From Blastocatellia bacterium (GTDB lineage Bacteria > Acidobacteriota > Blastocatellia > UBA7656), in contig CAVXWP010000001.1 of NCBI GenBank assembly GCA_963765495.1, forward strand, positions 768,001 through 832,000: 64,000 bases of DNA, written 5' to 3'. The notes under the pieces were generated by a model. It ran no database searches. It was not told the DNA's origin and saw only the letters and a list, made by a program, of their open reading frames with translations. The translations under genes were made by a program, and so were the position numbers. Numbering within the stretch: position 1 is the first letter of the stretch; every line of letters begins with the position of its first letter. Below are positions 1,424 through 28,747 of the stretch, piece after piece.

Positions 1424-1634
1424 CAGAGAGCGCGTGACTGAGATTGAAATCACAAATCTCCATTCACAAATCTCAAATCACACAGGTATTCTTCGGATTG
1501 CGCGGATATTTTCTCTGTACGGCTTTCCCGTAAATAGTGCTATACTTGGCCAATTCCGGCCCGCGCCCCTGTGATTTCTCAGGTATTACCAGGTGTCGGG
1601 CAGGGCATATCAAGCGAGGACAGAGATCAAGTTT

Positions 1635-3863
1635 ATGGGCGTTCGCGGAGAGATTCATTTTCTAAACGAAGATGCAGGTGATGTCTTCACGGTTGAAACC
1701 CCACGATTCACAATCGGACGCGGGATTGAAAACTCGCTCTGTCTGCCCGATCCAAGCGTCTCTCGCTTTCACGCAGAGATCATACGTCTCGGCAAAGATT
1801 TTCTCCTCAGAGACCTCGGCTCCACAAACGGCAGTTATGTCAACGGTGTTCGCGTTGCCGAGCAAATGCTCAACGACGGCGACCTTGTTTTGTGCGGCGA
1901 GTTCGGCCCCCGATTGCTTTTCAAGCAGATTGAAGATTCACAGGAGATCCTCGCGCAAAAGCGGCCTCGCTGGGGCAGGACCGAAAACCTTATAAAATCG
2001 CTCTCACACAAGCTCGACGATCTGACAACGGATGAGCGCGAAGAGGTGAGCCTTCGCTGCGTGCTGGCCGAAGCCTACATCAACAAGGGCAAGCACGAAG
2101 ACGCATTCGATATGCTCTCGAAATATGTGGCCCCGGTCAGGTTGCTTTCGCTGTCGCCGGAATTTCGCGCCTCGGTCCTTTACTGGGTGGGCTCCGTCTA
2201 CATCGAGAGAAAGCAGTACGCAAGCGCCATAGACGCCTTGCATCGCAGTCTCGATTATTACACACAGGTTGGAGACAGCACCGGGATAGCCGGCGCGCAT
2301 ACTTCGCTCGGTCGCGCCCTGAGCAGCACGGGAGATTTGCTTGCGGCCCGCGACTCTCTGCACAGGGCTATGCTTGTCGCGCGGCGTGCCGGAAACGCGC
2401 GGCTTCGCGCCGAGGTCCATCTGCTCGTAGGAAAGCTGGATTGGAAGGAAGGCGATCTGGAGGGCGCGCGCTATAACTGGATGCGTGCCGCGCGTCTGGC
2501 CGAAGGCTCAAGCGATGCGCTGTTGCAGGCGCGCGCGCAGCTTCAGCAGGCGTTCGTGCTCTACAGTGAAGGCAAGCTCAAAGAGGCCGTGCCCGCTTAT
2601 CAGGCGGCTATAGATCAGATCGAGGCGGTCGAAAACGTGCGCTTTTTGCTGAAAGCCTACAGCAGCCTGTCTCGCGTGCTGACGCATCTCGGGTCCTGGA
2701 TTGCGACCGAGCGCCTTTTGGAAGACCGTATGCGCCTTGCGCGCGAAAATTCTATCAGTAAGGCCGAAGCCATAGCGCTCACCGACCTTGCAGAGTTGAG
2801 ACTGAGGCAGGGAAATTTCATCGCCGCCTGGAATGTGATTCACGAAGCGATAGAGCGTCACGGCCCGGTTGTTTATGCGCGCACGCAGAGAATACTGGGG
2901 CGCATACTCTGGGTGCGCAAACGCCATCTGGAAGCCGTCGAGGCGCTCGAAAAAGGGCTTGCCTCGGCATCGAAAAAAGGCTCGCTCGAAGAACAGATTC
3001 TGATAGGGCTCGAGCTTGCATTGATCTACCTGGAGAGCGGCGACACGGCGCGCGCATTCGAACATCTGGTCGCGGCCGAATCGGTCACACCGCTCGACCC
3101 GGCTCTCGGTTTAATGGGGCGGGCGCTTTACACGCGCGGGCGCATACAGGCCGAGGCAGATCAAACGGCGGAAGCAAATCGCTGCTTTACGCAGAGCCTC
3201 TCGATACACCAGACGATAGGCGACCCGTTCCGAGCCGCTATGTGCCACGCGGCCATAGGGGCTTTGCGGGCGCGCATGGATCGCCCCGAATCGGCTCGCG
3301 GTCACCTTGAAGAGGCGCATGAAATCTTCACACGCCTCGGAGCCGCCTTCGAGCTTGAACAGGTCGAAGCCGAATTAAGATCGGGCGAACTCGATCTGGT
3401 CGAGGCGAGTATGACCCGCGCGCTTTCGCCCGGTCTGACGATGACCGCGCCCCTGTCGCTTTCAAGTACGACGACCGTGACGATGATAAGCCCCAGCCCG
3501 CATCGTGTACTTGTGGGCGAGGCAAATGATGATCTGGCCGCATTGCTTACAAGAGGGCTTGAAGTCGAGAATTATGTCGTAGAGCGAGCCCGCGATGGGC
3601 GCGAAGCCTTTGAGCAGGCCACTGACCGCAAAGAGTCTTTCGACCTGCTTGTGCTCGATACCTTGCTCGAACACCGCTCAGGCTTCGATGTCTGTTGCGA
3701 GTTGCGAAAGATCAAGCTTGAGATCCCGGTCATTTTGCTGGGGAATCGTCAGGGAGTCGAAGACAAGATCGAGGCGCTACAGGCCGGAGCGGATGATTTC
3801 ATCGCCAAAAAAGATATGGTCTTCGAAGAATTGCTGGCAAAAATAGAAGCACTTTTAAGATAA
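1635..3863 (+). CDS. FHA + TPR-repeat + C-terminal receiver-domain signalling protein
   Basis: FHA (IGR...VSRFHAEI...DLGSTNGSYVNG), a long helical TPR-like repeat region, and a REC domain (FDLLVLD...AGADDFIAK). ATG 1635 preferred to the upstream GTG. Confidence 0.85.
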   Translation: MGVRGEIHFLNEDAGDVFTVETPRFTIGRGIENSLCLPDPSVSRFHAEIIRLGKDFLLRDLGSTNGSYVNGVRVAEQMLNDGDLVLCGEFGPRLLFKQIEDSQEILAQKRPRWGRTENLIKSLSHKLDDLTTDEREEVSLRCVLAEAYINKGKHEDAFDMLSKYVAPVRLLSLSPEFRASVLYWVGSVYIERKQYASAIDALHRSLDYYTQVGDSTGIAGAHTSLGRALSSTGDLLAARDSLHRAMLVARRAGNARLRAEVHLLVGKLDWKEGDLEGARYNWMRAARLAEGSSDALLQARAQLQQAFVLYSEGKLKEAVPAYQAAIDQIEAVENVRFLLKAYSSLSRVLTHLGSWIATERLLEDRMRLARENSISKAEAIALTDLAELRLRQGNFIAAWNVIHEAIERHGPVVYARTQRILGRILWVRKRHLEAVEALEKGLASASKKGSLEEQILIGLELALIYLESGDTARAFEHLVAAESVTPLDPALGLMGRALYTRGRIQAEADQTAEANRCFTQSLSIHQTIGDPFRAAMCHAAIGALRARMDRPESARGHLEEAHEIFTRLGAAFELEQVEAELRSGELDLVEASMTRALSPGLTMTAPLSLSSTTTVTMISPSPHRVLVGEANDDLAALLTRGLEVENYVVERARDGREAFEQATDRKESFDLLVLDTLLEHRSGFDVCCELRKIKLEIPVILLGNRQGVEDKIEALQAGADDFIAKKDMVFEELLAKIEALLR

Positions 3864-15241: not shown

Positions 15242-16303
15242 TTGAAACGTGTAGCTGTCATCCCCGGCGACGGCATCGGGCCGGAGGTCATAAATGAAGC
15301 TGTCAAAACTCTGGAACTCGCAAGCCGGATATTCGGCTTCGATCTTGCCCTCACCGATTTCGACTGGGGAGCCGATAAGTATCTTACGACGGGCATCACC
15401 ATGCCCGAAGGCGGGCTTGAGATGCTCGCGCGCGAATACGACGCCATACTTGCCGGAGCATTCGGCGACCCCCGCGTGCCCGATAACAAACACGCGGCAG
15501 ACATCCTGCTCGGAATGCGGATGGGGCTCGACCTCTACATAAACCTTCGCCCGGTCAAACTGATAGACTCCCGCCTTTGCCCTCTCAAAGACCGCGCTCC
15601 AAAGGATGTGGATTTCGTGGTCTTTCGCGAGAACACCGAAGGGATGTATGTCTTCATGGGCGGCAATTTCAAGAAAAACTCAAGCGACGAGATAGCCGTT
15701 CAGGAAGAGGTCAACACCCGCAAAGGCGTCGAGCGAATAATAACTGCTGCCTTCGAATATGCCGCACGGCACGGTCGCAAGCGCGTGACGATGAGCGATA
15801 AATCGAACGTCTTAACCTACGGCCACGACCTCTGGCAGAGGACTTTCAAAGAGGTTGCCGCGCGTTTCCCCGACATCGAGGCCAATCACCTGTATGTAGA
15901 CGTGCTGGCGATGTGGATGGTGCTCGACCCTTCGAGGTTCGATTGTGTAGTGACCAACAACCTGTTTGGCGACATAGTGACCGATCTGGGTGCGGGCTTG
16001 CAGGGCGGATTGGGGATGGCCGCATCGGGCAATATTCATCCCGGGCGGGTGTCGCTTTTCGAGCCCGTGCACGGAAGCGCCCCGCAGTTTGCGGGCAAGA
16101 ACGTCTCTAACCCGATTGCCTCTGTGCTCACGGCGGCGATGATGCTCGAATACCTTGAACTCCCCGAACCGGCTCGCGCAATCGAAGCCGCCGTCGAAAA
16201 ATCTGTCGCGCTCGGCCAGACCACAAAAGACATAGGCGGCGGGCTTTCGACCACCGACGCGGGAGAAGCGATCAGGCGGCACCTGAAGGCTGCAACAGAC
16301 TAA
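15242..16303 (+). CDS. 3-isopropylmalate/tartrate dehydrogenase family protein
   Basis: IPGDGIGPEV, RENTEG, NLFGDIVTD and FEPVHGSAP; substrate cannot be determined from motifs. Confidence 0.88.
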   Translation: MKRVAVIPGDGIGPEVINEAVKTLELASRIFGFDLALTDFDWGADKYLTTGITMPEGGLEMLAREYDAILAGAFGDPRVPDNKHAADILLGMRMGLDLYINLRPVKLIDSRLCPLKDRAPKDVDFVVFRENTEGMYVFMGGNFKKNSSDEIAVQEEVNTRKGVERIITAAFEYAARHGRKRVTMSDKSNVLTYGHDLWQRTFKEVAARFPDIEANHLYVDVLAMWMVLDPSRFDCVVTNNLFGDIVTDLGAGLQGGLGMAASGNIHPGRVSLFEPVHGSAPQFAGKNVSNPIASVLTAAMMLEYLELPEPARAIEAAVEKSVALGQTTKDIGGGLSTTDAGEAIRRHLKAATD

Positions 16304-16330
16304 ACTCGTAAAAAATGAAAAAACCTGGGC

Positions 16331-16403
16331 AAGATTAACAGGATTAACAGGATTTTCTTTCAATCCTATTTCAGAAAACTTGTTAATCTTGTTAATCCTG
16401 TCT
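16331..16403. repeat. Inverted pair of 9-mer (CAGGATTAA) arrays
   Basis: aagattaacaggattaacaggatt ... cttgttaatcttgttaatcctgtc. Confidence 0.7.
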
Positions 16404-16438
16404 AAGATTCCGGCATCAATTTGCGAGGATAGTCAAAT

Positions 16439-17275
16439 ATGATAAGTCCGTTGCACATAGGAGTTCTCGTCGAAGCTCGCTATCTCGTTCAGAGTCAGCC
16501 TTCGGGCATGATTCGGGCTCTTAAGGCCGAGGGGCATCGTGTTGAGGTGATAGACCCGCAGACGGATGCCTATGTGTTGGGCGATGATCGATGGCTTGAA
16601 GGGTTTGACGTGGCGCTTGGGCGTGGGCGCAGCAACGCGTTGTTGTGTCTGCTTGCCTGGGCGGAATCCTTTGGCATCCCCGTCATCAACCGCGAAGCGG
16701 CAATCGCCTCCGTTTATGATAAAGCCGAAATGTCTGTGATTCTGGCAAGGGGCCGCATACAGACTCCGCGCACTTTTTTTGGCAGCATCGCTTCACTCGC
16801 CCGGCAGGTCTCCGAAGGTTTCTATCCGCTTATACTCAAACCTATCTTTGGCGATAATTCTCAAGGTTTGCTTGTAGTCTCTTCTCCCGAGGAGATGGCC
16901 GGGATAGAATGGCGAGACCCCGTGGCCCTCGCTCAGAGCTACCTGCCCACGGATGGATATGATGTGAAGCTTTACGGCATTGGCAATGAGGTATGGGTAG
17001 TGCGAAAACCGTCTCCGTTCAACAAGCCTGTTGAACCGATTACCGGCAAATCGGAGGCCGAGTTGCTGCCGCTCACGCCGGAGCTTGAAGCGCTTGGCAG
17101 GCGTTGCGGTCAATTGTTTGACCTTGAGCTTTACGGCGTTGATTGCATACTGACGGAAGAGGGGCCGCTCGTGATCGAGATAAACGAATTTCCGAATTAT
17201 ACGGGCGTGCCTGAGGCCGACCGCAGGCTTGCCGAGTACGTCACCGAGCGGGCGCGGCAGGAGCAATCAAAATGA
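16439..17275 (+). CDS. ATP-grasp enzyme 1 (RimK-fold, ITPK1-like motifs)
   Basis: PLILKP, AQSYL, DVKLYGIG..VWVVRKPS, LYGVD and VIEINEFPNYTGVP. Confidence 0.85.
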   Translation: MISPLHIGVLVEARYLVQSQPSGMIRALKAEGHRVEVIDPQTDAYVLGDDRWLEGFDVALGRGRSNALLCLLAWAESFGIPVINREAAIASVYDKAEMSVILARGRIQTPRTFFGSIASLARQVSEGFYPLILKPIFGDNSQGLLVVSSPEEMAGIEWRDPVALAQSYLPTDGYDVKLYGIGNEVWVVRKPSPFNKPVEPITGKSEAELLPLTPELEALGRRCGQLFDLELYGVDCILTEEGPLVIEINEFPNYTGVPEADRRLAEYVTERARQEQSK

Positions 17276-18102
17276 GGATCGCGATAATCGGAGTCCGCCA
17301 CAAGGAGGACCGCAAAAGCCCGCTGGTCGCTGAGCTTATCGGGTTGCTTTCCGAAAAAGGCGCAAGCGTGGATATGCTCTATCCCGAAGACGATCTGATT
17401 GATCTTGCGCGTGTGCGCGTCGCCTATGACCTCTATGTTTACAAATCGGGAACCGAGACGGCCTTTGCGCTTGCGGGGATTTTGAACGCGGCGGGCGCTC
17501 AGATACTCAACCCTTACAGCGTAGTGGCCGCGATGAAAGACAAGTTCATCGCCTCAAAAATCCTCGAAGCCGCGCGCATCCCGCTGCCCGAAGCCTACAT
17601 GGCGGCAGAGGCCGGTCAGCTTGCCGGGTTGCTTGACGGGGGGGCGCTTGTCGTCAAACCTTTCTGGGGGTCGCAGGGGCGCGGCGTTCAGGTGATACGA
17701 AACCTCGAAGAACTCGACCGGATAGAGACAGGGCAGGGGCCGATATTTGCGCAGCGCTACCACGAGCCTGACGGGCGCGACCGCAAGATATATTGCATAG
17801 GCGGAAAGCTCTTTGGCGTGATGCGGATTTTTCCGGCGCGAACATACGAAGAGAAACTCGGCGAGGTGTTCACACTCACAGACGAAATGCGCGACATCAC
17901 CGAGCGCGCGGGTCGGGCCTTTGGCATTGACCTGTTCGGGCTCGACATCATATTGAGCGACGGGCGTCCTTACGTGGTAGACATAAACACATTTCCCGGT
18001 TTCAAGGGAGTGCCGGAGGCGGCCCGCCTGCTTGCCGATTATATTTACGGCGCAGCCACGCGCGCGCTAAAAGGCGAGCCGTTGATCGAGGGTTGGGAGT
18101 GA
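17272..18102 (+). CDS. ATP-grasp enzyme 2 (RimK-fold, ITPK1-like motifs)
   Basis: YDLYVYK, LVVKP..GSQGRGV, DRKIYCIG, LFGLDII and VVDINTFPGFKGVP. Confidence 0.85.
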   Translation: MRIAIIGVRHKEDRKSPLVAELIGLLSEKGASVDMLYPEDDLIDLARVRVAYDLYVYKSGTETAFALAGILNAAGAQILNPYSVVAAMKDKFIASKILEAARIPLPEAYMAAEAGQLAGLLDGGALVVKPFWGSQGRGVQVIRNLEELDRIETGQGPIFAQRYHEPDGRDRKIYCIGGKLFGVMRIFPARTYEEKLGEVFTLTDEMRDITERAGRAFGIDLFGLDIILSDGRPYVVDINTFPGFKGVPEAARLLADYIYGAATRALKGEPLIEGWE

Positions 18103-18208
18103 ATTTGAAATTGATTTGAGGCCGAGACGCCTCAGATTGATTTGATTCACACGCGCTCATCTGAGATTTCAAATCTGAAATCTCAAACCTTTGGGGTGAG
18201 GAAAGATC

Positions 18209-19033
18209 ATGAGACTTTACTTTATGGTAGTCCGTCGCGTTCCGCCCGTGCCGAGCCCGGTGCTTGTGGAAGCCTACGAGATATTGCGACATCGCGGGTT
18301 CGAGATCGAATCCGGCATAGCCGAAGAGGTTCTGTTGCGGCCCGACGAACTGGTTCCCTCCTACGACCTCTACATACTCAAGTCGCACACGGAGTTGTCG
18401 CTCAGCCTGGCGGGGATTCTTTATACTCAGGGCGCGCGACTGCTAAACCCTTACGAGTCGTGCGCGCTGACGCAGAACAAACTCGTAGTCTCGCGGCTTT
18501 TGCAGAAGGCAAACGTCCCGGCCCCGCGCTCGTGGGTGACGGCTGACCTCTCGCTTTTGCGCGAAGTGGTCGAAGAGACGCCGCTTATAATCAAGCCATA
18601 CATGGGCCATCGCGGAGCCGGTATAGTCAAGGTGACAAACCCGGATGAGCTTATGGCGGTTCCAAACCCCGACGCGCCCGTGATAATTCAGGAGTACATC
18701 GAAGGCAGCGGCGAAGACCTGAAAATTTACGTAGTGGGCGAACAGGTCTTTGGCGTGCGTAAGCCGTTTTCGGAAACGAGCTTTACGGTGCCGGGCCGCC
18801 CCGTGCCGGTCTCGGATGAGGTGCGCGACCTGACCATACGCGCGGGCCGGGCTTGCGGGCTCGGGTTGTACGGGCTCGATGTTATCGAAAGCCCTCGCGG
18901 CCCGTTTGTCGTGGATGTGAATTACTTCCCCGGATATAAAGGCGTGCCCGATGTAGCGCCCATCATCGCCGATTATATCGAAGGCTACGCCCGCGAGCGG
19001 TTTACTCTCACCCCGCCCGCACCCGTTCAGTAA
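18209..19033 (+). CDS. ATP-grasp enzyme 3 (RimK-fold, ITPK1-like motifs)
   Basis: [34 protein letters not shown] and [14 protein letters not shown]. Confidence 0.85.
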
Positions 19034-19061
19034 CCCCGCGGATTTGCCGGGCAGACTCCGA

Positions 19062-20330
19062 ATGCGACTTAAGCCTGAACAGATAAACTCCTCTCTGCTG
19101 GTCCTACTCGCGGAGGGCTTTCTCTCAAGACTCAGCTTTGGGCTGATCAGCTTTGCCCTGCCGCTTTATGCCTACTATCTGGGGCTGAGCCTGACCGAAA
19201 TCGGATTGCTTGCCTCGCTCAACCTCGTGGTCGAACAGACGTTCAAACCTGTGATGGGCTGGGCGGCGGATCGATTCGGACTGAAGCGAAGCTTTACGAT
19301 TGCAATCGCGCTCAGAAGCGTAGTCGCCTTGATGCTTGCCTTCGCCTCCGCGCCGTGGCAATTGTACGCGATACGCATCGTTCACGGTTTATCGGAATCG
19401 CTGCGCGACCCGTCTGTCAATTCGCTTCTTGCAGATAACGGCACACCGAAAAATACCGCTTCGCATTTCGCGTGGTATTCGACCGCAAAGACCGTCGCGG
19501 GCTCGCTCGGCAAAACCACGGCGGGGTTGCTGCTCACTTTTACGGCTTACAATTATTCAAGGGTCTTTATGGTCGCGTTCGTTTTATCCGGGTTGCCGCT
19601 TTATGTCGTAGCCCGTTACGCGCGAGAGAGATCGTCGCTCGACCAATCAAAGAGCGGGCATACGTCTGAGGCGAGCGCCCCGCCTGAGGCTCTCGAAATT
19701 GAGAATACGACGGTCGCGGCCCCCGAGCGCATGGCGATATTTCCGGTCGCGGTGCTCGGGTTTCTGATCGCCTCCTCGGCAAACATGATGAGCAATCTGT
19801 TTCCAATTCTGGCAAAGGAGTACGCCGGATTGAGCGCGGCAGAAACGGGGCTGATCTATTCGATTTCGATAGCCGTTGTGATCGTTTCAGGACCGCTTTT
19901 CGGATGGCTTTCCGATAACGTCAGCCGAAAACTGGTGCTGATGGTGCGAGGCATTTCCAATACCATCTCTTCAATTCTTTTCATAATATTCCCGACCTTT
20001 GCCGGGATAGCCGTGGGCAAGGCCGTCGATGATCTCGGCAAATCGGCCTATCGCCCGGCATGGGGCGCGGTGATGGCACGCGTCTCGGGTTTCGACAGGC
20101 GGCGGCGGGCGCGTACCATCGGGTATCTGAGCATGGGCGAAGGGATTGGCGAGACCGTGGGCCCGGTGCTCGCAGGGTTGCTCTGGAACGTGTGGGGGGT
20201 GGGCGCGTTGCTTGGTGCGCGAGTGGCGCTTGCCCTCATCAGCGAAATCTATACGGTGATCGTTACAAGAGAGTTGGATAAGGGAAGCGAGCAGGTTGGA
20301 GCGAGACGTTTTATAATGCGTGATGCGTGA
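19062..20330 (+). CDS. MFS transporter
   Basis: About 12 hydrophobic segments; MFS motif A in both halves (GWAADRFGLKR, GWLSDNVSRK). Confidence 0.9.
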   Translation: MRLKPEQINSSLLVLLAEGFLSRLSFGLISFALPLYAYYLGLSLTEIGLLASLNLVVEQTFKPVMGWAADRFGLKRSFTIAIALRSVVALMLAFASAPWQLYAIRIVHGLSESLRDPSVNSLLADNGTPKNTASHFAWYSTAKTVAGSLGKTTAGLLLTFTAYNYSRVFMVAFVLSGLPLYVVARYARERSSLDQSKSGHTSEASAPPEALEIENTTVAAPERMAIFPVAVLGFLIASSANMMSNLFPILAKEYAGLSAAETGLIYSISIAVVIVSGPLFGWLSDNVSRKLVLMVRGISNTISSILFIIFPTFAGIAVGKAVDDLGKSAYRPAWGAVMARVSGFDRRRRARTIGYLSMGEGIGETVGPVLAGLLWNVWGVGALLGARVALALISEIYTVIVTRELDKGSEQVGARRFIMRDA

Positions 20331-20400
20331 TGCGTGAGTTTTGGAGTCCCAGTTAAAAAGAAACCATCTTTCAGATCACGCATCACGTATCACGCATCAT
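20316..20400. repeat. Inverted pair of heptamer (GTGATGC) arrays
   Basis: atgcgtgatgcgtgatgcgtga ... tcacgcatcacgtatcacgcatca; the first array supplies the MFS stop codon. Confidence 0.8.
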
Positions 20401-20478
20401 TGAGCGCATCACGGAGCGGCTGTGGTATAAGAATGAGCCAGACAGGCCGCACCCGTATGAGTCAGGAAAGGAAGCCTT

Positions 20479-21339
20479 ATGCGAATCTGTTTTTTGATGG
20501 AACCGCCCAGAAGCAAGACCTCTGTCACGCACGACATACTCGATGGCTTGAAAAGCGAAGGCGCTGATGTGGAGATAGTCACCGAGCGCACGGGGCTTGT
20601 TGACCTCGAAGGCTTCAAGTTTGACTACGACCTCTATCTTTTCAAGTCTCACTCGCCGCTTGCGGAGTCCTTAGCCGCCGCCGCTCATTACAGAGATTCT
20701 CTTTTGTTAAACGAATACCCGGCGACGATGAAGGTCCGCGATAAGGTGCTGACCTGCACGATGCTCTTGCAGGCGGGGCTGCCCACGCCGCGCACTTTTG
20801 TGACCGATTCGATAGAGACGCTTCGCCCGGTTGTGCGACGTATGCCGATAGTTGTAAAGCCTTATCGCGGCAGACGCGGGCAGGGAATAGAGGTTTGCAT
20901 GGATGAGGCTCAATTTGATGCGCTCATCAAGCGCCGCGCCGGAGAGTCTGTTTCAGATGACGAAGGCGGCGAAGACGGGACCGCGCTTGGCGAGCGGCTG
21001 ATCTTTGCTCAGGAATTTGAAGAACACGAGCCGTTCGATTATAAAGCCTACGCGATAGGCGATTATGTTCACGCGATAAAGCGGATATTTCCGGCCACGA
21101 CCAGAGAAGAAAAAGACGGCACGCCCGTTGGTGACGATCCCGAGCTTCAAGACCTTGTCAAGCGCACGGGCCGATTGTTTGGCCTCGAACTCTACGGCGT
21201 CGATCTGGTCAAGACGCCAAAGGGATTCTCGGTCATCGAAGTCAATTGTTTCCCCGGTTACAAAGGGGTTCCTCAGGCGGGCGAGCGCATAAGCAAATTT
21301 ATCGTGGATCGTGGCAGGCAACTTATTTCTGCGCGATAA
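20479..21339 (+). CDS. ATP-grasp enzyme 4 (RimK-fold, ITPK1-like motifs)
   Basis: [34 protein letters not shown] and [14 protein letters not shown]. Confidence 0.85.
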
Positions 21340-21377
21340 TCTCTGACCTCGACGGCCACTAAATCAGCCGGTCCAGA

Positions 21378-21406
21378 TTGACAAACAAAAGGGCGAGGAG
21401 TAAAAC
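21378..21406 (+). promoter_or_regulatory. Putative sigma70 promoter
   Basis: TTGACA-17 nt-TAAAAC about 110 bp before the ATG at 21516. Confidence 0.55.
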
Positions 21407-21515
21407 GACGATGTTCACAAGCCATGCGTAAGCGCCCCAAACTCAGGCAGCAACGCTAACGGGCCGGACTCTCATTCAGGTTGTTTCCGGCTCTGTCGTT
21501 ATTAGGAGGAATTTT

Positions 21516-22892
21516 ATGAGCAGAAGCCCCGTATTTAAGACTCAGTTCACAAGTTCTATGACAACGGCTGTGATGATCTTTCTCTTGCATCTGGCCGTTG
21601 CCGGTTCCGCACTGGCACAGGCGCAGACAGGCAACGCGCCGCCTGAGCCCGAGAAAGACCCGCAGCGCGCGCACTGGCGCATAGAGGTCGAGCCTTATGC
21701 CGTTTTAGGCAGCGGGCAGCCCGGCAAACTGGCCTCCGATTTCGGCAAACCCGACGGCGCTGCATTCACTCCTACGGGTTTGCTGCTTGCAACCGACGGG
21801 AAGAATCGCCGGGTGCAGGTCTGGGACGTGCGCAATCGCACGCACCTGGGCGAATTCGGCCACAAAATCTTTGGAGGCGAGATCGTCGATATAGCCGTTA
21901 TGCCCGACGGACGAGTGCTTGTAACCGATCAAACGCTCAATCTCGCTTACGTATTCGCCCCTCCCGCGCCGGGCGAAAAGGACGAGAACGGCAAGACGCT
22001 CGGCCCTTACGATTACCAGTTCAAGGGCACGCATTTCGGCGAGCAGGGATTCAATAAACTCGGAGGCATAGCCGTTGATTCGCGAGGCAGGATCTATCTG
22101 GTCGACGCGCATCTGAACGATGTGCGCCGCTTCAACTCCGACTTCTCGCTCGATTCGTCGTGGAAGTTCGAGCGGGCGCGACCGGATGGGACCACCTATC
22201 TTCACGGCTGCGAAGGGATCGCTATAGATGAGCAGGAAGGAAACCTTTTTATAGCGAGCGAAAAGGATTACATCATTCAGGTCTTCGATCTTGAGACAGG
22301 AGCCTACAAGCGCCGACTCATCGGCGCGGGCGTGGATAAATCGGGACAGCCCGTCGGGCAGTCCGTATTTTCGGGTTCGGTCGAAGGTCTCGCCGTCACG
22401 CGAAATCATCTTTTCGCCGTAGACGAAAACGCCGGTTTTATTCAGATATTCGACATCATGAAGCCCGACAGCTTCAATGTTGATCTTGCCGGATACAATC
22501 GGACGCGGCGCACTCGATCAGGCGGATACAGGGGATTTTTCGGCCATTCGCCTCTGGTCAACTTTGCCGATAAAGAAGATACAGCGCTGCAAAAACGCTT
22601 GAAGGATGGTTCGATAATACCGGGGCAGGCCAATCCGCCCGGCTATTTCTGCTCGCCTGACGCGATTGCCAGCTACACCGATGACGAATCGGGCGAGACA
22701 TATATCGCCATAGCCGATCAGTGGAATTTCCGGCTTGCCGTCTATCGCTGGTCCGATCTGACCAAAGCGATGGAGCCCGCCTCGGCAAAAAGCGAAGCCG
22801 GGGCGAAAGGCAAATCGAAAGGCGGAGGGAAGAAGAAAGGCGATGGAAAGGGAAAGAATAAGGACGGCAAGAAGAAGAAAAAAAAGAATTGA
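21516..22892 (+). CDS. Secreted NHL-repeat beta-propeller protein with Lys-rich tail
   Basis: Signal peptide (ALAQA); NHL-like blades (GGIAVDSRGRIYLVD, EGIAID, EGLAV); tail KGKSKGGGKKKGDGKGKNKDGKKKKKKN. Confidence 0.8.
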   Translation: MSRSPVFKTQFTSSMTTAVMIFLLHLAVAGSALAQAQTGNAPPEPEKDPQRAHWRIEVEPYAVLGSGQPGKLASDFGKPDGAAFTPTGLLLATDGKNRRVQVWDVRNRTHLGEFGHKIFGGEIVDIAVMPDGRVLVTDQTLNLAYVFAPPAPGEKDENGKTLGPYDYQFKGTHFGEQGFNKLGGIAVDSRGRIYLVDAHLNDVRRFNSDFSLDSSWKFERARPDGTTYLHGCEGIAIDEQEGNLFIASEKDYIIQVFDLETGAYKRRLIGAGVDKSGQPVGQSVFSGSVEGLAVTRNHLFAVDENAGFIQIFDIMKPDSFNVDLAGYNRTRRTRSGGYRGFFGHSPLVNFADKEDTALQKRLKDGSIIPGQANPPGYFCSPDAIASYTDDESGETYIAIADQWNFRLAVYRWSDLTKAMEPASAKSEAGAKGKSKGGGKKKGDGKGKNKDGKKKKKKN

Positions 22893-22967
22893 CCTGATTA
22901 AAGACTTGCTCGTAAAAGTAAATATATTACGGTCCTCTGCCGGGACTTCTGTATCTGAGGAAATGTT

Positions 22968-25900
22968 GTGAAACTCTGTCCCGTCTGCAAAAAAGAAGCC
23001 CCCGACGAGCGCAAATTTTGCCCTTTTGACGGGACACCTCTTCCTGATCTTGCGCCGCCCGCCTCGCCCGGCGATGCCGCGAGAGCCTTTCCCCTGCTTA
23101 TAATTCAATCTCCCGGCGGGCAGGTTCAGGAAGAGGCGATCACAACAACGCCGATCAATATAGGCCGCGCGCCCGATAACGACCTCTCGCTTTCCGACCC
23201 TACCATCAGCCGCCATCACGCGACGCTTATCTGGGAGGATGGGCAGTACAGAGTTGTGGATGCGGGCGGGCGCACGGGTCTCTTTGTCAACGGGCGTAGA
23301 GTAGATGAACAGGGATGGGCACTGTGTCAGGACGATGTCATTACAATCGGGCGAACTCAGATCACCTTTCAGATTCCCGGCATCGAGCTTGGCGGGCACC
23401 CATCCAGAACTGCTCGCACACAGGGCCAGCCAGATTCCACCCCCGATTCGGCTTATCCCGAACAGGCGGGGCATATCGAAATACTGACCCCTTCCGGGGA
23501 ACGCCTCTATGTAAATCTCGCGGGCGACCCGGTAAGGATAGGCGCGGGCGCAGACAATGACGTAGTGCTCGACGACCCGGCCATCAGTCACAACCACGCG
23601 ATCATAGGTTTGCGCGACGGCGGGTGGTACATTCAGGATGCGGGCAGCCGCAACGGCGTCTTTGTCAATAGGAAACGGGTAGGCTCGGACGGGCAGCCCA
23701 TCGAGCCGGGTGATTCGATAATAATAGGCCGCACACGTATCGCGCTCGCGCTTGGCCCCGAGACAGCCGATGTTCCCGTGCTCGACGAGAAGGCCACGAA
23801 ATCCGGTTTGACCGGGTTGCCGCCCACCAGACCTTTCTCCCCAAAATCTTCTCCTTCGGAGGCGGAAGGCGCTCAGGGCTACAAGACGCCCGCCGCTATA
23901 CCTAAGACCGGCCCCGCCGGTCTGCCTTCCATAGTCCTGGACAACCGATATAAGCTCGGAGCCCGAATCGCGCAGACATCGACCGGCACTCTTTATCGCG
24001 CCCGTCGCATAGCTCTTGGCGATGAAGTTCTTGTGAGAGTCCTGTACCCGGATCTGGTGCGCGACCCGGCAGCTTACGCGCGGTTTCGCAGGGGCGCGCA
24101 GGTGGCGGCAAGGATACAGCATCCGAATTCAGTCAAGATATTCGATTTCGGCTCGACCGAGGATGGGGTCGTCTATGTCGTAGAAGAGTTGCTATCGGGC
24201 CGCACCTTGCGCAATCTGATAGTCGAAGAGCGCGGCCTGACCTTGCAGCGCGTCGTCGGGCTGTTCAATCAGATATGCGGGGCCGTACACGCGGCGCACC
24301 TCAACGGCATAGTGCTGCGCGACATAAAACCCGAATCCATCTTTATCGAAAAGGGGCCGGACGGCAAAGAGCTAATCAAGGTGGGCGGTTATGGTCTGGC
24401 CAAGCTCAGCCCCTCGGAAAGCGCGGGCGTGACTATGGCCAGTCAGGCAAAAGTCTTCGGAGCGCCGCAATATATGTCGCCCGAACAATGGCTCGAACGC
24501 CCGCTCGACTCCCGATCCGATGTCTATTCGCTCGGCGTCATCCTCTTTGAATTGCTCACGGGCGCTGTGCCTTTTGACGCGCTTATGCCGGGAGAAATCG
24601 CCCAATTGCATCTGACCGCAAGGGTGCCGGATATTACCGAACTGGGACGCCCCGATCTAAACGAGGATGTGGCGGCTGTGGTAAATCGCGCGCTCGCAAA
24701 AGACCCGAAAGACAGACAGCCCACGGCACTCAATCTGGCCTCCGAGCTTCAGGCCGTATCGGGCGCGCCGCGCGGCATACTGAGCGATTTCCTGAGCCGG
24801 ACCATAGGCATAAAAGCCCTGCCGCCTGTTGTCGTACCGACTGCGCCCGCCTCGGTCCCTGCCGGAGAAGAGACCTTGCCATCGGTTGTCGCCGCGCCCG
24901 AGCCTAAAGCGGGCGGCTCGCTCAACCCTGTGGTCCTCGCCCTGATGTGTGAGGCCTTTCTTTCGCGCATATCGAGCGGGATGATAAAGACGGCCGTGCC
25001 GCTTTATGCGCTGCTGGTCTTTGGCCTCGACATCACTTCCGTCATGGTGCTCGTGCTGATTCAAAACATAGTGCCCCTGCTGCTGCGCCCCTTCTTTGGC
25101 ACGCTCGCCGACAGGTACGGCAAGAAGCGCGTATTTTTGATCGCGCTTGCCATTCGCACGCTTGTCAGCATACTTTACGCGCTAGCCACGCTGCCGCTTT
25201 TATTTATCATCAGCGCCATAAGGGGGATAGCCGATTCGGCAAAAGGGCCGTCGGCCTCGGCTATGATAGCCGACAACACGGACGAGCGACACATAGCCAA
25301 AGCCTATTCCTGGTATACGACTACGAAATCGACATCGGGCGGCATCGGCGAGGCGCTGGCGGCTTTCCTGCTGGTCACACTGATAGTCTTTCTCTCTGGC
25401 AGCCAGAATGTGACTGTAAATGTGGCCGTGCTCGAAGAGAATCATCTGGGCAAGCCTGTGGAAGAGATTTTAAAAAGCCCGGCGGATGTGACCGCAGACC
25501 GGATGCTGCCGGGAACCGAGGCCAACCCGAAGCCGCGCCGTGTGCTCATGGTAGAGCAGCGCCAGATGCCGCTCAGTCAGGTTCCGCTCGAAGATTTGCC
25601 AAAGGTCATAGAGGACACGTTCCTCAGGAGGGCGCTCGTTGTCATCTTTGTGGGTTCGACTATTCTTTCGGCCATCTCGCTCATATTGGTTGCCGTCTTT
25701 ATTCGCGAAAAAGACAAGTCAAAGAAAGTGAAAAAGAGCGCATCCAATGAATCCGCCCTGCTCGACAGATCAACCTCGCCCGCCACGCAGCCAAACATCT
25801 GGGCATTTGCGCTGATGGGCACGGCGCTCACGGCTCCGGCCTACATGGTAACGGGCGAGTTTTTCACCGTGCTTGCGGTGAAACTGGAAGTCACATCGAA

Positions 25901-26369
25901 TGCGCTCGGATGGATAAAGATACTGGCCGAGACCATAGTGCCGCTCCTGTTCGGCCCGTTTTTCGGCTGGCTTGCCGACCGCGTAGGAACAGGAAAAGTG
26001 ATCGCGACGCGCTCGATTGCCAACCTGGCCACGTCGCTGCTGTTTTGGATAACGCCCTGGTTTGCCGGAACCTTTTTGCTCAGCACGATGATGGGGCTTG
26101 CGCGCGGGGTTGACGAAATAGGCAAGGCCGCCTTCAAGCCTACGTGGGGAGCCATCGCGGCCAAAGTGTCGAGTTTCAATCTGAGCAATCGAAGCCGGAC
26201 TATGGGCATACTCGAAGGCGGTGTTGACGCATCGGACCTGGCTTTCCCGGTGCTTGCGGGGTTGTTGTTGCAATACCTCTCGCTCGGCCTCCTGATGGCC
26301 GTCCGCGCCTTGTTTGCCATCGCCGCCGAAGTTTACACTTTTATCCTCATGCGGAGATACAGGATTTAG
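22968..26369 (+). CDS. Zn-ribbon-FHA-FHA-Ser/Thr pseudokinase-MFS transporter fusion
   Basis: CPVC...FCPFDG; two FHA domains; Hanks-type kinase fold ([22 protein letters not shown]); C-terminal MFS with [11 protein letters not shown] and GWLADRVG. Confidence 0.88.
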
Positions 26370-26491
26370 CATATCGAGATTTGAGATTTGAGACTTGAAA
26401 CCTCAGATGGGCGCGTGTGAATGAGATTAATTTCCAGCGTATTTGGTTTGCATTTGACGATAAAGGCGAAAATCGAAAGGTAAAGGATAAG

Positions 26492-27526
26492 ATGAGAAGT
26501 GATATGGATAGGATAAGAACAGGTGGTTCCGGCCTCCCACACGGGTCGGCCTCCGCTTTTTTGTGTATGGCTATAATCGTTATTTCGGTTATCGGGGCCG
26601 CCTCTTGCCACGGAAGTTCCAACAATAATGAGGCTAATGAGACGATGGCAAAGGGCGAGAAGAAGCATAAGGAAAGATCGAAAGGGATAGGCGAAGGCAT
26701 TGCGATCAAAGGGGGAACGTTTGAAACATCCGGGGCGGCGCAGGTTCCCGGAACCGATTATCTGCTCGTCGTTGACGACGGCAGAAACGATCAGATTCTC
26801 TTGCTGCAAATAGACAAAACGGGCCAGCAGGTAGGCGACCCCACTCCCTTAGACCTCGGGGTGAGCGTCAACGACCCGGAAGGCATCACCTTTGACGGAA
26901 CATATTTCTACATCGCGGGCTCGCAATCCCGGCCAAAGCAGGAAGAGAAAAACGCGCTCGCGCGATTTGTCTTTGACTCAAACACGCGGCAGATAAAGAG
27001 CGCGGAGGCGATAAAGGATTTCAGGTCGTGGCTCCTCGAAAAAGCGCCCGAGTTAAAGGCCGAAGGCGACCAGAAGGGCGAAGACGGCGGGCTGAACATC
27101 GAAGGCATCGCGTGGGACCCCGATCATAAGCGCCTTCTGCTCGGGTTGCGCTCGCCGTTTGTCGGCGACAAGGCAATGATTATACCCGTGAGTTTACGCA
27201 CGCCAACCGGCCCGTTTTCAGCCGACAATTTGCAGGTTGAAAAAGCCATCGAGTTGCCACTCGGCGGTGCGGGCGTCAGGGACATTCAATACGACAACCG
27301 ATTGAAATCTTTCCTGATAATTTCGGGCGCGCCTGAAACGCGCAAGAAAGGCGAATTTGATCTCTGGCGGTGGGACGGCAATTCAGAACCGCAGAAGATG
27401 GCCGTGCTTGATCGCAAATTGAAACCCGAAGGCGTAGCGCCGATCAAAATGGCCGATAGCGATTTTATCTTTGTAGTCTGCGACGCGAGTTTTTATTTCA
27501 AAATCGACTACCCCGAGGGGCAGTAG
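26492..27526 (+). CDS. DUF3616-like beta-propeller lipoprotein (start uncertain)
   Basis: Lipobox-like AASC; DPEGITFDG.YFYIAGSQS, GGLNIEGIAWD, LLLGLRSP, LGGAGVRDI and KPEGV motifs. Confidence 0.7.
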   Translation: MRSDMDRIRTGGSGLPHGSASAFLCMAIIVISVIGAASCHGSSNNNEANETMAKGEKKHKERSKGIGEGIAIKGGTFETSGAAQVPGTDYLLVVDDGRNDQILLLQIDKTGQQVGDPTPLDLGVSVNDPEGITFDGTYFYIAGSQSRPKQEEKNALARFVFDSNTRQIKSAEAIKDFRSWLLEKAPELKAEGDQKGEDGGLNIEGIAWDPDHKRLLLGLRSPFVGDKAMIIPVSLRTPTGPFSADNLQVEKAIELPLGGAGVRDIQYDNRLKSFLIISGAPETRKKGEFDLWRWDGNSEPQKMAVLDRKLKPEGVAPIKMADSDFIFVVCDASFYFKIDYPEGQ

Positions 27527-27697
27527 GCAGTAGGCAGTAGGCAGTTTTTAAGGGGGAATATCGCTATCTATACAGATGCCTGATTAGAACGGTGGGAATA
27601 GACCACGGACGGACGCGGATCGGGCGGATTTACACGGATGAACTCATCGCTTCAAAATAACTGCCTACTGCCTACTGCCTACTGCATACTGCCTACT
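27519..27697. repeat. Inverted heptamer (GGCAGTA/TACTGCC) arrays between convergent genes
   Basis: ggcagta about x4 at 27519-27545 and actgcct about x5 at 27660-27697; each array contains the stop codon of its flanking gene. Confidence 0.85.
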
Positions 27698-28747
27698 ATC
27701 CATAGGCCACTGTCTGGGCTTGCGGCCTCGTTTGAACATCAATTGGGGGAACATCAGATTGGCGCGAAACCGCTCAATCGAGTGGTCTCGTTCGACGTGT
27801 ATTCGCGGCAGGGCGAATCGGTCAAACTCATCATAAAATGCCATCGAGTCTTCATAAGATACAGCGTAGTGAAATCCTGCGCGGGCCACTGCTTCCTTTG
27901 CTTCGAGGCTGAATCTGGAGAGCGTCCCCGCCGGATAGGCGAATGCTATGGCCTCTTTCCCCAGATGTCGTTCGATGGCTCGCTTGCTTTCAAATATCTC
28001 CTGCTCAAGCTGCGCGTGGCCGACATTGGCAAGAATCGGATGTGTGATCGTATGACTGCCAAACTCGATGCCTTCGGACGCCATCAGATTGATCTCTTCC
28101 CAGGTGAGCATCATCTTTCGGGCAAGGTGCTCGGGCATCTCTACATCGAGTTCCAGATTGAGTCTTTCCAGAAAGCCCTGTCTGACCTCTTCGGGAACCT
28201 CCTTGATCCATTCAAGCACGCGCTCGATGGCGCTGCGTCTGTCGATTGCAGACCGAAGCGACATAGGCTCTCCTGAAACTGAGGGGAAGGAGATTTCCGC
28301 GCGCCGGGTTTTTTTCAATGAGTAAGTGATCCGATCCCACCAGAAGAGCTTCGATTGATTTATACAGCCCGTCGTGAGAAAGATGGTCGCAGGGAGCGCC
28401 AGAGCTTTCAGCACGGGGAAGGCATTGGTGTAATTGTCTTTGTATCCGTCATCGAAGGTGATCAGCAGAGCGCGGTGGGGCAATTTTCGCCCTTCGATCT
28501 CCGACTGGCGCAGGTCTTGAAAAGAGATAACATCAAAATTGTTCCGCGCAAACTTCATCTGATTATAGAAGCTCTCGGTGTCGGCGCTTATCAACTCTTC
28601 GTCAAAAGGAAAGGTGGCCGGGTCATCATCTATCACGCGATGATAGGCGAGTATGCGCAAGCCCTCCGAGCGGGCGCTGGCAAGCGACCATATTCGGCTG
28701 GTGAATTGATTGCCCAATAAGCGGGATGCAATCTCTCGTCTGCTCAT
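27665..28747 (-). CDS. Polysaccharide deacetylase (NodB homology)
   Basis: ILAYHRV, ITFDDGYKDNY, GSHTITHP and FAYPAG. Confidence 0.92.
   Translation of the reverse strand: MSRREIASRLLGNQFTSRIWSLASARSEGLRILAYHRVIDDDPATFPFDEELISADTESFYNQMKFARNNFDVISFQDLRQSEIEGRKLPHRALLITFDDGYKDNYTNAFPVLKALALPATIFLTTGCINQSKLFWWDRITYSLKKTRRAEISFPSVSGEPMSLRSAIDRRSAIERVLEWIKEVPEEVRQGFLERLNLELDVEMPEHLARKMMLTWEEINLMASEGIEFGSHTITHPILANVGHAQLEQEIFESKRAIERHLGKEAIAFAYPAGTLSRFSLEAKEAVARAGFHYAVSYEDSMAFYDEFDRFALPRIHVERDHSIERFRANLMFPQLMFKRGRKPRQWPMDSRQYAVGSRQ

Follow-up and report, generated by a model that had tools for sequence, protein, structure and literature searches.

A single gene in a 64,000-nt stretch of the genome of a Blastocatellia bacterium (contig CAVXWP010000001.1; the whole stretch is called the window, and its numbering is used for all coordinates) was found to encode a protein in which a Zn-ribbon-like knuckle, two FHA domains, and a Hanks-fold kinase-like domain that has lost most of its catalytic residues are fused to a twelve-helix transporter of the major facilitator superfamily (MFS). 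Blastocatellia are common in soils. The protein may well be a functional MFS transporter that is controlled by Ser/Thr phosphorylation, the signal being read through the fused N-terminal module, a proposal to which we give about even chances. With the reader (FHA), the scaffold (pseudokinase), and the effector (transporter) in one chain, the control of a membrane machine by a dead kinase becomes testable with one construct. Bacterial pseudokinases are almost unstudied, and in a 2025 review none of the seven families covered has an MFS partner and none is mentioned from Acidobacteria (PMC12599244). The gene also forms part of a new, conserved cluster, in which four ATP-grasp paralogues are accompanied by two MFS genes and by genes for a beta-propeller phytase and an FHA-TPR-receiver protein; the cluster may bear on phosphorus acquisition.

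Architecture of the fused protein

The open reading frame (ORF) listing and the translation showed no internal stop between 22968 and 26369, and the single frame of 1133 amino acids described in the initial annotation, which had been made from the DNA letters alone, was thereby borne out. A Shine-Dalgarno-like GAGGA motif lies 8-9 nt 5' of the GTG start. The homologues begin with 'MKxCPxC', to which the N-terminus of the protein can be aligned. An identical protein is on record (P0002). The Pfam scan identified two FHA domains (E 2.2e-36), a Pkinase domain at residues 330-584 (E 2e-31), and an MFS_1 domain (E 1.2e-28), the last with a score of 100.5 bits against a cut-off of 33.4. The 120 aligned members of the family were used to build an AlphaFold2 model, which had a mean predicted local distance difference test (pLDDT) score of 82.7 and included the knuckle, two FHA beta-sandwiches, a kinase fold, and twelve long helices, with disordered stretches at residues 28-39, 140-164, 265-309, 602-616, and 918-939. 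The transmembrane (TM) helices were taken from this model, as a crude hydropathy scan was too noisy. The parts of the gene are as follows.

22968..26369, plus strand: whole ORF, Zn-ribbon-like/FHA/FHA/pseudokinase/MFS, 1133 amino acids, GTG start, stop at 26367-26369
22968..23051, plus strand: Zn-ribbon-like knuckle, CPxC...FCxxD, residues 1-28 (alignment; beta-hairpins in the model)
23091..23372, plus strand: FHA1, residues 42-135 (Pfam, alignment, pLDDT about 90-96)
23469..23753, plus strand: FHA2, residues 168-262 (Pfam, alignment; in a minority of the family only)
23754..23942, plus strand: Pro/Ser/Thr-rich disordered linker, residues 263-325 (pLDDT below 50 for 265-309)
23943..24761, plus strand: Hanks-fold pseudokinase, residues 326-598 (Pfam, PknB alignment, family alignment, fold search)
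24762..24917, plus strand: juxtamembrane linker, residues 599-650 (conserved Thr motif and GExxLPSVV motif)
24918..25397, plus strand: MFS TM1-TM5, residues 651-810 (11-residue motif A-like stretch after TM2; 78% identity)
25398..25613, plus strand: insert between TM5 and TM6, residues 811-882 (three beta-strands and a short helix)
25614..25796, plus strand: TM6 and Lys-rich disordered central cytoplasmic loop, residues 883-943 (AlphaFold2)
25797..26366, plus strand: MFS TM7-TM12, residues 944-1133 (second 11-residue motif A-like stretch and an invariant 14-residue block; 81% identity)

Distribution of the fusion

Homologues were taken as the 120 best matches in a collection of 5.8 billion proteins. 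All 120 carried both Pkinase and MFS_1 domains, 117 also carried an FHA domain, and identities to the query ranged from 52 to 68%. The architecture is already visible in databases, where automated annotation names some members as kinase/MFS fusions: the source names included 'MFS transporter [Blastocatellia bacterium]' and one 'bifunctional serine/threonine protein kinase/MFS transporter, partial'. For the family alignment P0002, the window's own protein, was dropped, leaving the query and 119 homologues (n = 120).

A scan of one genome per species yielded 63 loci, of which 59 (L001-L059) encode the fusion family, while L060-L063 represent unrelated kinases or a weak MFS match. The titles of the loci named Blastocatellia or Acidobacteriota, one Chloracidobacterium bin, and some Heliomicrobium or Clostridia bins. 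Bins L006, L007, L013, L014, L023, L028, L032, L034, L035, L041, L043, L050, and L055 were titled Heliomicrobium, Heliobacteriaceae, or Clostridia, with the locus 56-70% identical; these taxon labels are suspected to be wrong, the locus being otherwise restricted to Blastocatellia. In addition, a junction probe of 311 residues, reaching from the kinase C-lobe to TM5, aligned over its whole length in 61 of the 301 genomes sampled from the class, including the genome of the window and the unpublished G245. In one further genome (G197:C11:81233-82139), the junction was matched in pieces in different frames, one of them with a TGA; a frameshift, a misassembly, or a gene split in two could account for this.

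A misassembly or a lost stop codon that joined a kinase-like gene to an MFS gene is therefore ruled out for practical purposes: the same colinear fusion occurs in 119 other clusters, in the 59 loci, and in the 61 genomes, the linker at the junction itself holds conserved motifs, and base composition is even along the gene, junction included. Nor are the homologues separate genes, as all of the best matches are fused. Read support was uninformative on this point. Four soil-metagenome runs contained part of the stretch, all as low-depth Logan contigs, and in the best run, which may be the source sample, two contigs at about 4-5x depth left 19 nt (24803-24821) unbridged. No RNA run was among those listed. 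The fusion is ancient and conserved.

The kinase-like domain

The best solved relative of the kinase-like domain was PknB of Mycobacterium tuberculosis (1o6y; E 1.8e-47, about 35% identity), which was also the best fold match (Foldseek TM-score on target of 0.77-0.89). Aligned to PknB, the Gly-rich loop of the query reads AQTSTG (residues 335-340) rather than GxGxxG, and G340 alone is conserved (111 of 120 members). The beta3 motif is VLVR, with Lys replaced by R357, and the alphaC motif is RFRRG, with Glu replaced by G376. The catalytic loop LRDIKPES has L450 for His and S457 for Asn and keeps D452, and DFG has become GYG, with G474 for Asp. Four of the five catalytic residues are thus gone from the query, which retains D452 alone. 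The C-lobe is kept, including YMSPEQ in the APE region, SDVYSLG, and the alphaH-alphaI Arg, and the activation loop is of full length, with residues 477-506 aligned to PknB and Thr489 among them. Every motif change listed in the initial annotation, as well as the intact C-lobe that it described, was located in this alignment.

The same residues were lost in the homologues. Across the 120 sequences, the beta3 position is Arg in 107 and Lys in 13, the alphaC position is Gln in 106 and Glu in four, the His of HRD is found in none, the catalytic Asp in 97, and the catalytic-loop Asn and the DFG Asp in one each; the Lys at +2 (K454) is kept in 102. When the five catalytic residues were counted together, 14 sequences kept none, 97 kept one, eight kept two, one kept three, and none kept more, so that the full catalytic set is present in no member and a catalytically normal kinase was not found.

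Sequence conservation was calculated as mean pairwise identity over 1500 random pairs. It was 66% in the pseudokinase, 45% in the FHA domain, 55% in the insert, 30-48% in the linkers, and 78% and 81% in the two MFS halves. Because the catalytic loss is family-wide and the domain is nonetheless 66% identical, catalysis must have disappeared at an early stage, with selection maintaining the fold; on sequence evidence, the domain is a pseudokinase under purifying selection. The contrast with the linkers fits a retained non-catalytic role, and to that extent supports the earlier interpretation of the domain as a non-catalytic scaffold or allosteric module, which as a whole is only partly supported.

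A different reading, in which the domain is an atypical active kinase with Arg357 in place of Lys and D452 as the base, and in which autophosphorylation feeds the protein's own FHA domain, is considered quite unlikely. Although D452 and K454 are kept in most members and a Thr is found in the activation loop of all 120, both metal ligands are gone (the Asn and the DFG Asp each survive in one sequence), the Gly-rich loop is down to one Gly, and no member exceeds three of the five catalytic residues. The bacterial DYD kinases share the beta3 Arg and the absence of the alphaC Glu and, as reported in the 2025 review, were modelled with ATP bound (PMC12599244). However, they have retained the Asn as well as a DFG-like motif of acidic character, neither of which is kept in the fusion family.

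The FHA domains, the knuckle, and candidate phosphorylation sites

The FHA fold was supported by two Pfam stretches and by beta-sandwich strands at a pLDDT of about 90. Phospho-Thr binding by FHA domains involves a set of residues in G-R, S-x-x-H, and an S/T-x-N-G loop. The alignment agreed with the initial annotation that FHA1 of the query keeps GR and SRHH and that FHA2 has lost the Arg of GR (GA, with SHNH), and it added that the S-x-N-G loop of FHA1 is replaced by G-R-T-G (GGRTG), while SRNG is intact in FHA2. In the family, conservation among the 117 sequences with the domain was G66 in 117, K/R67 in 100, S81 in 116, R82 in 112, H84 in 117, S101 in 108, and N103 in 91, the last two being the Ser and Asn of the loop lost from FHA1 of the query.

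Most family members have a single FHA domain. The two-FHA form was found in eight of 120 sequences by alignment occupancy and in 12 of 119 homologues by BLAST, and the Arg position of the eight aligned second FHA domains is Arg in five, Phe in two, and Ala in one, which is the query. The loss of the FHA2 Arg is thus true of the query, but both the two-FHA form and the loss are confined to a minority lineage. The knuckle is more widespread, being present in 80 of 120 members by alignment occupancy, with C4 in 79, C7 in 79, and C18 in 80 sequences; in the 81 sequences covering the region, position 21 is occupied by Asp (60) or His (21). The knuckle that had been annotated as a Zn ribbon is therefore there, but it has three Cys only (C4, C7, and C18), with Asp or His at the fourth position.

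Several candidate phospho-acceptors were identified from the alignment, namely the activation-loop Thr, the Thr of a juxtamembrane KATGLLP motif, and the disordered Ser/Thr/Pro-rich linker. All 120 sequences have a Thr in the activation loop, at position 489 or 491, next to the Arg of the RD pair (R451), which is likewise invariant (120 of 120). The Thr of KATGLLP is found in 101 of 120 sequences (column 613), with a hydrophobic residue at +3 in 88; in the query this Thr is displaced by one, to T612. Further along the juxtamembrane linker, G633 and P638 are each kept in 117 of 120. The disordered linker between FHA2 and the pseudokinase had a mean pairwise identity of 30% (residues 263-322).

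The MFS transporter and its insert

The MFS is the most conserved part of the protein. Its twelve TM helices form two six-helix halves in the model (residues 654-911 and 944-1131), with TM1-TM5 at 654-684, 689-717, 719-738, 742-770, and 776-810. The MFS motif A, GxLaDrxGrkr, follows TM2 and is repeated after TM8. Its residues 711, D715, G718, K719, K720, G1000, D1004, and G1007 are invariant among the 120 sequences, as are many charged intramembrane residues.

The sole other close relative of the fused MFS in the 7.3-Mb genome is encoded in the same operon:

19044..20330, plus strand: stand-alone MFS paralogue, 428 amino acids

BLASTP aligned the two over 153 residues at 37% identity (E 6e-31) and over 245 residues at 33% (E 4e-33), the blocks being separated by about 80 extra residues in the fusion (803-892). 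These results bear out both the paralogy and the extra insertion absent from the stand-alone protein that the initial annotation had proposed; however, the start of the stand-alone gene is 19044, as the 19062 given there is an internal ATG. The insert is present in all 120 fused members. It had a pLDDT of about 86-96 inside the full model and a mean of 58.8 when modelled alone (residues 800-895, 47-row alignment), and since it folds poorly alone it probably packs on the MFS body. From its position between TM5 and TM6, the cytoplasmic N-terminus, and the Lys-rich central loop, MFS topology would place the insert in the periplasm rather than in a cytoplasmic loop. A predicted complex of the MFS (640-1133) with the pseudokinase (318-600) scored 0.00, without controls, and counts neither way on docking.

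The MFS subfamily is, by the matches found, a small one: among 1.84 billion cluster representatives, the MFS part had 1441 matches at E <= 1e-3, 170 at <= 1e-10, and 57 at <= 1e-30. The nearest solved structures to the paralogue were the drug/H+ antiporters NorA (E 1.8e-10), QacA, and VMAT2, all with weak E-values.

Beyond the family, P0127 (715 amino acids) is a colinear kinase-like-MFS protein without FHA or insert, 29% identical to the query over 501 residues. Among its 120 listed relatives, eight are pseudokinase-MFS fusions and 14, by precomputed domains, are HTH_25-MFS fusions; P0296 and P0320 are among the latter, and both HTH_25 members scanned were confirmed. The HTH_25 domain (XRE/RodZ-type) was fused N-terminally to an MFS of the stand-alone type in metagenome data labelled Actinomycetota. 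Two of the eight, P0276 and P0277 (908 and 945 amino acids), carry an N-terminal RimK-like ATP-grasp domain before the kinase-like and MFS domains, as confirmed by Pfam. Where names were given for the listed relatives, as they were for a few, they were those of Actinomycetota lineages. P0127 and P0271-P0277 share with the query family the MFS subfamily, the pseudokinase-MFS order, the loss of the DFG Asp, and the link to RimK-like ATP-grasp proteins. In contrast, they have no FHA, knuckle, or TM5-TM6 insert, and their decay is different, with HGD and S/N/Q-FG motifs and a lost APE. This MFS clade has been joined repeatedly to cytoplasmic regulatory domains and is tied to ATP-grasp proteins by both gene order and fusion.

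The conserved operon

A conserved operon ends with the fusion gene. The neighbouring features of the window are the following.

16439..17275, plus strand: ATP-grasp 1 (AG1), RimK-like, 278 amino acids
17272..18102, plus strand: ATP-grasp 2 (AG2), RimK-like, 276 amino acids
18209..19033, plus strand: ATP-grasp 3 (AG3), RimK-like, 274 amino acids
20479..21339, plus strand: ATP-grasp 4 (AG4), RimK-like, 286 amino acids; the most conserved neighbour, 74-87% identical elsewhere
21516..22892, plus strand: NHL/'Phytase-like' beta-propeller with a signal-peptide-like N-terminus, directly 5' of the fusion
26417..27526, plus strand: DUF3616/'Phytase-like' protein, directly 3' of the fusion; kept in only three other loci
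1593..3863, plus strand: FHA-TPR-receiver protein, 756 amino acids
3888..5048, plus strand: mannitol-dehydrogenase-family protein, beside the FHA-TPR-receiver gene in the window as in 13 further loci

Gene order was counted on the 38 loci with at least 7 kb upstream. In 27 of them the genes AG1-AG2-AG3-MFS-AG4, in this order and all on the strand of the fusion, immediately precede it; AG4 was directly upstream in 36, and four loci (L037, L040, L041, and L043) had the four ATP-grasp genes without the stand-alone MFS. In the class scan, the stand-alone paralogue occurred almost only in genomes with the fusion, with the exceptions of G241 and G247, both incomplete, while the fusion occurred without the paralogue in four genomes of one family (G021, G085, G093, and G162). 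Two small ORFs (about 117 and 123-129 amino acids) lie between ATP-grasp 2 and 3 in L009, L010, L022, L028, L053, and L054, on the opposite strand except for one in L028. A promoter and terminator scan of 16000-27800 gave the same counts as shuffled sequences.

Of the 46 loci that extend 3.5 kb or more upstream of the fusion, 37 carry a beta-propeller phytase gene (PF02333), which lies after AG4 and no more than 4.2 kb upstream of the fusion gene. Three members were scanned (E = 2e-111, 1.7e-100, and 5.1e-108), and examples include:

L010:6738-8168, plus strand: beta-propeller phytase
L007:8584-9891, plus strand: beta-propeller phytase
L001:8015-9544, minus strand: beta-propeller phytase

In the window, the NHL/'Phytase-like' propeller fills the phytase position. 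Orthologues of this propeller were found at 21 loci, the window included, and at 18 of the 46 loci above; its C-terminal tail of about 35 residues is Lys/Gly-rich, being mostly K and G. The FHA-TPR-receiver gene lies divergently beside AG1 in 24 of the 34 loci with 10 kb upstream. Its orthologue in the window is on the same strand, about 12.5 kb upstream of the operon, and is followed by the same mannitol-dehydrogenase-family gene. The intervening 12.5 kb encode a TonB-receptor-like outer membrane protein, a BNR protein, an FGGY kinase, a CNNM/CorC protein, an M28 peptidase, and an Iso_dh (isocitrate/isopropylmalate dehydrogenase-family) protein.

The ATP-grasp genes are called RimK-like here, as RimK and LysX align over most of their length and their ESM Atlas neighbours are 'RimK-like' clusters. 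Inositol-phosphate kinases were rejected as an identification: all four proteins pass the Ins134_P3_kin cut-off, but over the last ~60 residues only, and the Pfam match and the ITPK1 matches in the PDB cover just the C-terminal 55-60 residues. The idea is kept as a lead only. The cargo of the transporter is most likely a product or a substrate of the ATP-grasp enzymes. The link to these enzymes suggests an amino-acid-derived product, and the link to the phytase suggests phosphorus scavenging.

One alternative is that the fused protein is a transceptor or sensor. Its MFS part, including the beta-insert on the periplasmic side, would then mainly sense a substrate, and the pseudokinase/FHA module would relay its conformational state to partners in the cytoplasm, such as the conserved FHA-TPR-receiver protein, while the paralogue would carry out bulk transport. 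Two paralogous MFS genes in one operon at most loci, an insert found in every fused member and absent from the stand-alone protein, the repeated fusion of the MFS subfamily to regulatory domains (the eight pseudokinase and 14 HTH_25 fusions among the listed P0127 relatives), and the FHA-TPR-receiver gene adjoining the operon in most of the loci all point in this direction. However, in four loci and four genomes the fused copy is the only MFS gene of the subfamily that was found, with no stand-alone paralogue, the motif A-like loops and intramembrane charges are invariant, as expected of a transporter that cycles, and the fusion has no output domain. This explanation is regarded as rather unlikely.

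A scaffold for assembly, where the module binds the ATP-grasp enzymes, or phosphorylated forms of them, at the transporter and so couples synthesis physically with transport without gating, is somewhat harder to maintain and is regarded as unlikely. Only two triple fusions occur among the 120 listed proteins, and the presence of FHA domains suggests binding that depends on phosphorylation and is not constitutive, even though those two proteins (P0276 and P0277) place a pseudokinase between an ATP-grasp enzyme and the transporter, and AG4, unusually conserved at 74-87% identity, is directly upstream in almost every locus. A broader proposal is equally doubtful. It would make the protein the membrane hub of a so far undescribed phosphorylation-controlled system of soil Acidobacteria, in which a small, dedicated MFS clade is linked both physically and genetically to the four ATP-grasp proteins and a secreted phytase, with the fused copy acting as a transceptor through the dead kinase and FHA to the FHA-TPR-receiver protein. 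The periplasmic beta-insert and the pore would then report substrate availability, possibly in phytate or phosphorus scavenging, and a simpler cousin of the system would exist in the Actinomycetota-labelled bins.

A proposed model of phosphorylation-dependent gating

In the reading favoured here, that of a transporter gated by phosphorylation, one of the products of about 50 genes with matches to Hanks-type kinase-like domains in the genome would phosphorylate a Thr of the module. An FHA domain would then bind the phospho-Thr, either in cis or between protomers, and the rearranged pseudokinase/FHA module would free or block the cytoplasmic face of the MFS. The observations behind this reading are the intact transporter, the conserved fold of the dead kinase, an FHA domain that in the family retains most residues for phosphopeptide binding, the disordered linkers, and the place of the gene in the operon.

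Several observations weigh against this model. The retained catalytic Asp (97 of 120) and +2 Lys (102 of 120) leave room for atypical catalysis. When the ORFs of the loci were clustered, none for an active kinase or a phosphatase proved to be conserved in the 10 kb around the fusion. On the side of the reader, the key FHA Arg position is Lys in 82 and Arg in 18 of 117 sequences, and each FHA domain of the query is imperfect, FHA1 having no S-x-N-G residues and FHA2 no Arg. On transport direction and substrate, the drug/H+ antiporter matches of the paralogue (NorA, E 1.8e-10) are weak evidence. Finally, the window is one of nine loci without the phytase, and the genome's only phytase is encoded on another contig (G000:C16:207064-208041).

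Comparison with known systems

A literature search by title and abstract found no paper on a kinase/FHA/MFS fusion architecture, and at the same level no paper linking a beta-propeller phytase with ATP-grasp proteins or a Blastocatellia phytase with this cluster. In the 2025 review, which covers the seven bacterial pseudokinase families ActPs1-3, GLW, CP1, DYD, and DLHK, the terms 'MFS', 'major facilitator', 'transporter', and 'Acidobacteri' do not occur (PMC12599244). The initial annotation had stated that it knew of no characterized protein with this architecture, which is literally true, but each half has a characterized analogue, MviN with FhaA for one and Rv1747 for the other.

PknB-type kinases provide the best match in both sequence and fold, and the C-lobe motifs are common to both. 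In contrast, the fusion lacks the catalytic Lys, Glu, Asn, DFG Asp, and Gly-rich loop, and instead of PASTA or another extracellular sensor it carries a 12-TM transporter.

MviN (Rv3910) of M. tuberculosis is a polytopic transporter with a cytoplasmic Hanks-fold pseudokinase. According to the 2025 review, a Thr beside this pseudokinase is phosphorylated by PknB and read by the FHA domain of FhaA, which regulates the transporter pathway, and MviN belongs to the actinobacterial ActPs3 family, in which all three motifs are degraded and the activation loop is deleted (PMC12599244). Both MviN and the fusion are transporters that carry a Hanks-fold pseudokinase, with FHA reading of a phospho-Thr reported for the former and proposed for the latter. 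They differ in several respects: MviN is a MurJ/MOP flippase with the pseudokinase after the membrane domain, whereas the fusion is an MFS protein with the pseudokinase before it; the FHA reader is a separate protein (FhaA) in the one and part of the same chain in the other; and while the activation loop is deleted in ActPs3/MviN, it is of full length in the fusion family, where the RD pair is retained too.

Rv1747, an FHA-FHA-ABC exporter, is positively regulated through phosphorylation by the Hanks kinase PknF, as described in two reports (PMC3138270, PMC8339232). Like the fusion, it has two N-terminal cytoplasmic FHA domains and a disordered Thr-bearing linker fused to a transporter. However, its transporter is of the ABC type and no pseudokinase is present, whereas the fusion has an MFS transporter and no ABC family in the Pfam scan. 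The cognate kinase of Rv1747 is encoded in the same operon, while no kinase gene is conserved near the fusion. By analogy with these systems, phosphorylation-dependent gating of the Blastocatellia protein would merge the MviN/FhaA and Rv1747/PknF modes of control in a single chain.

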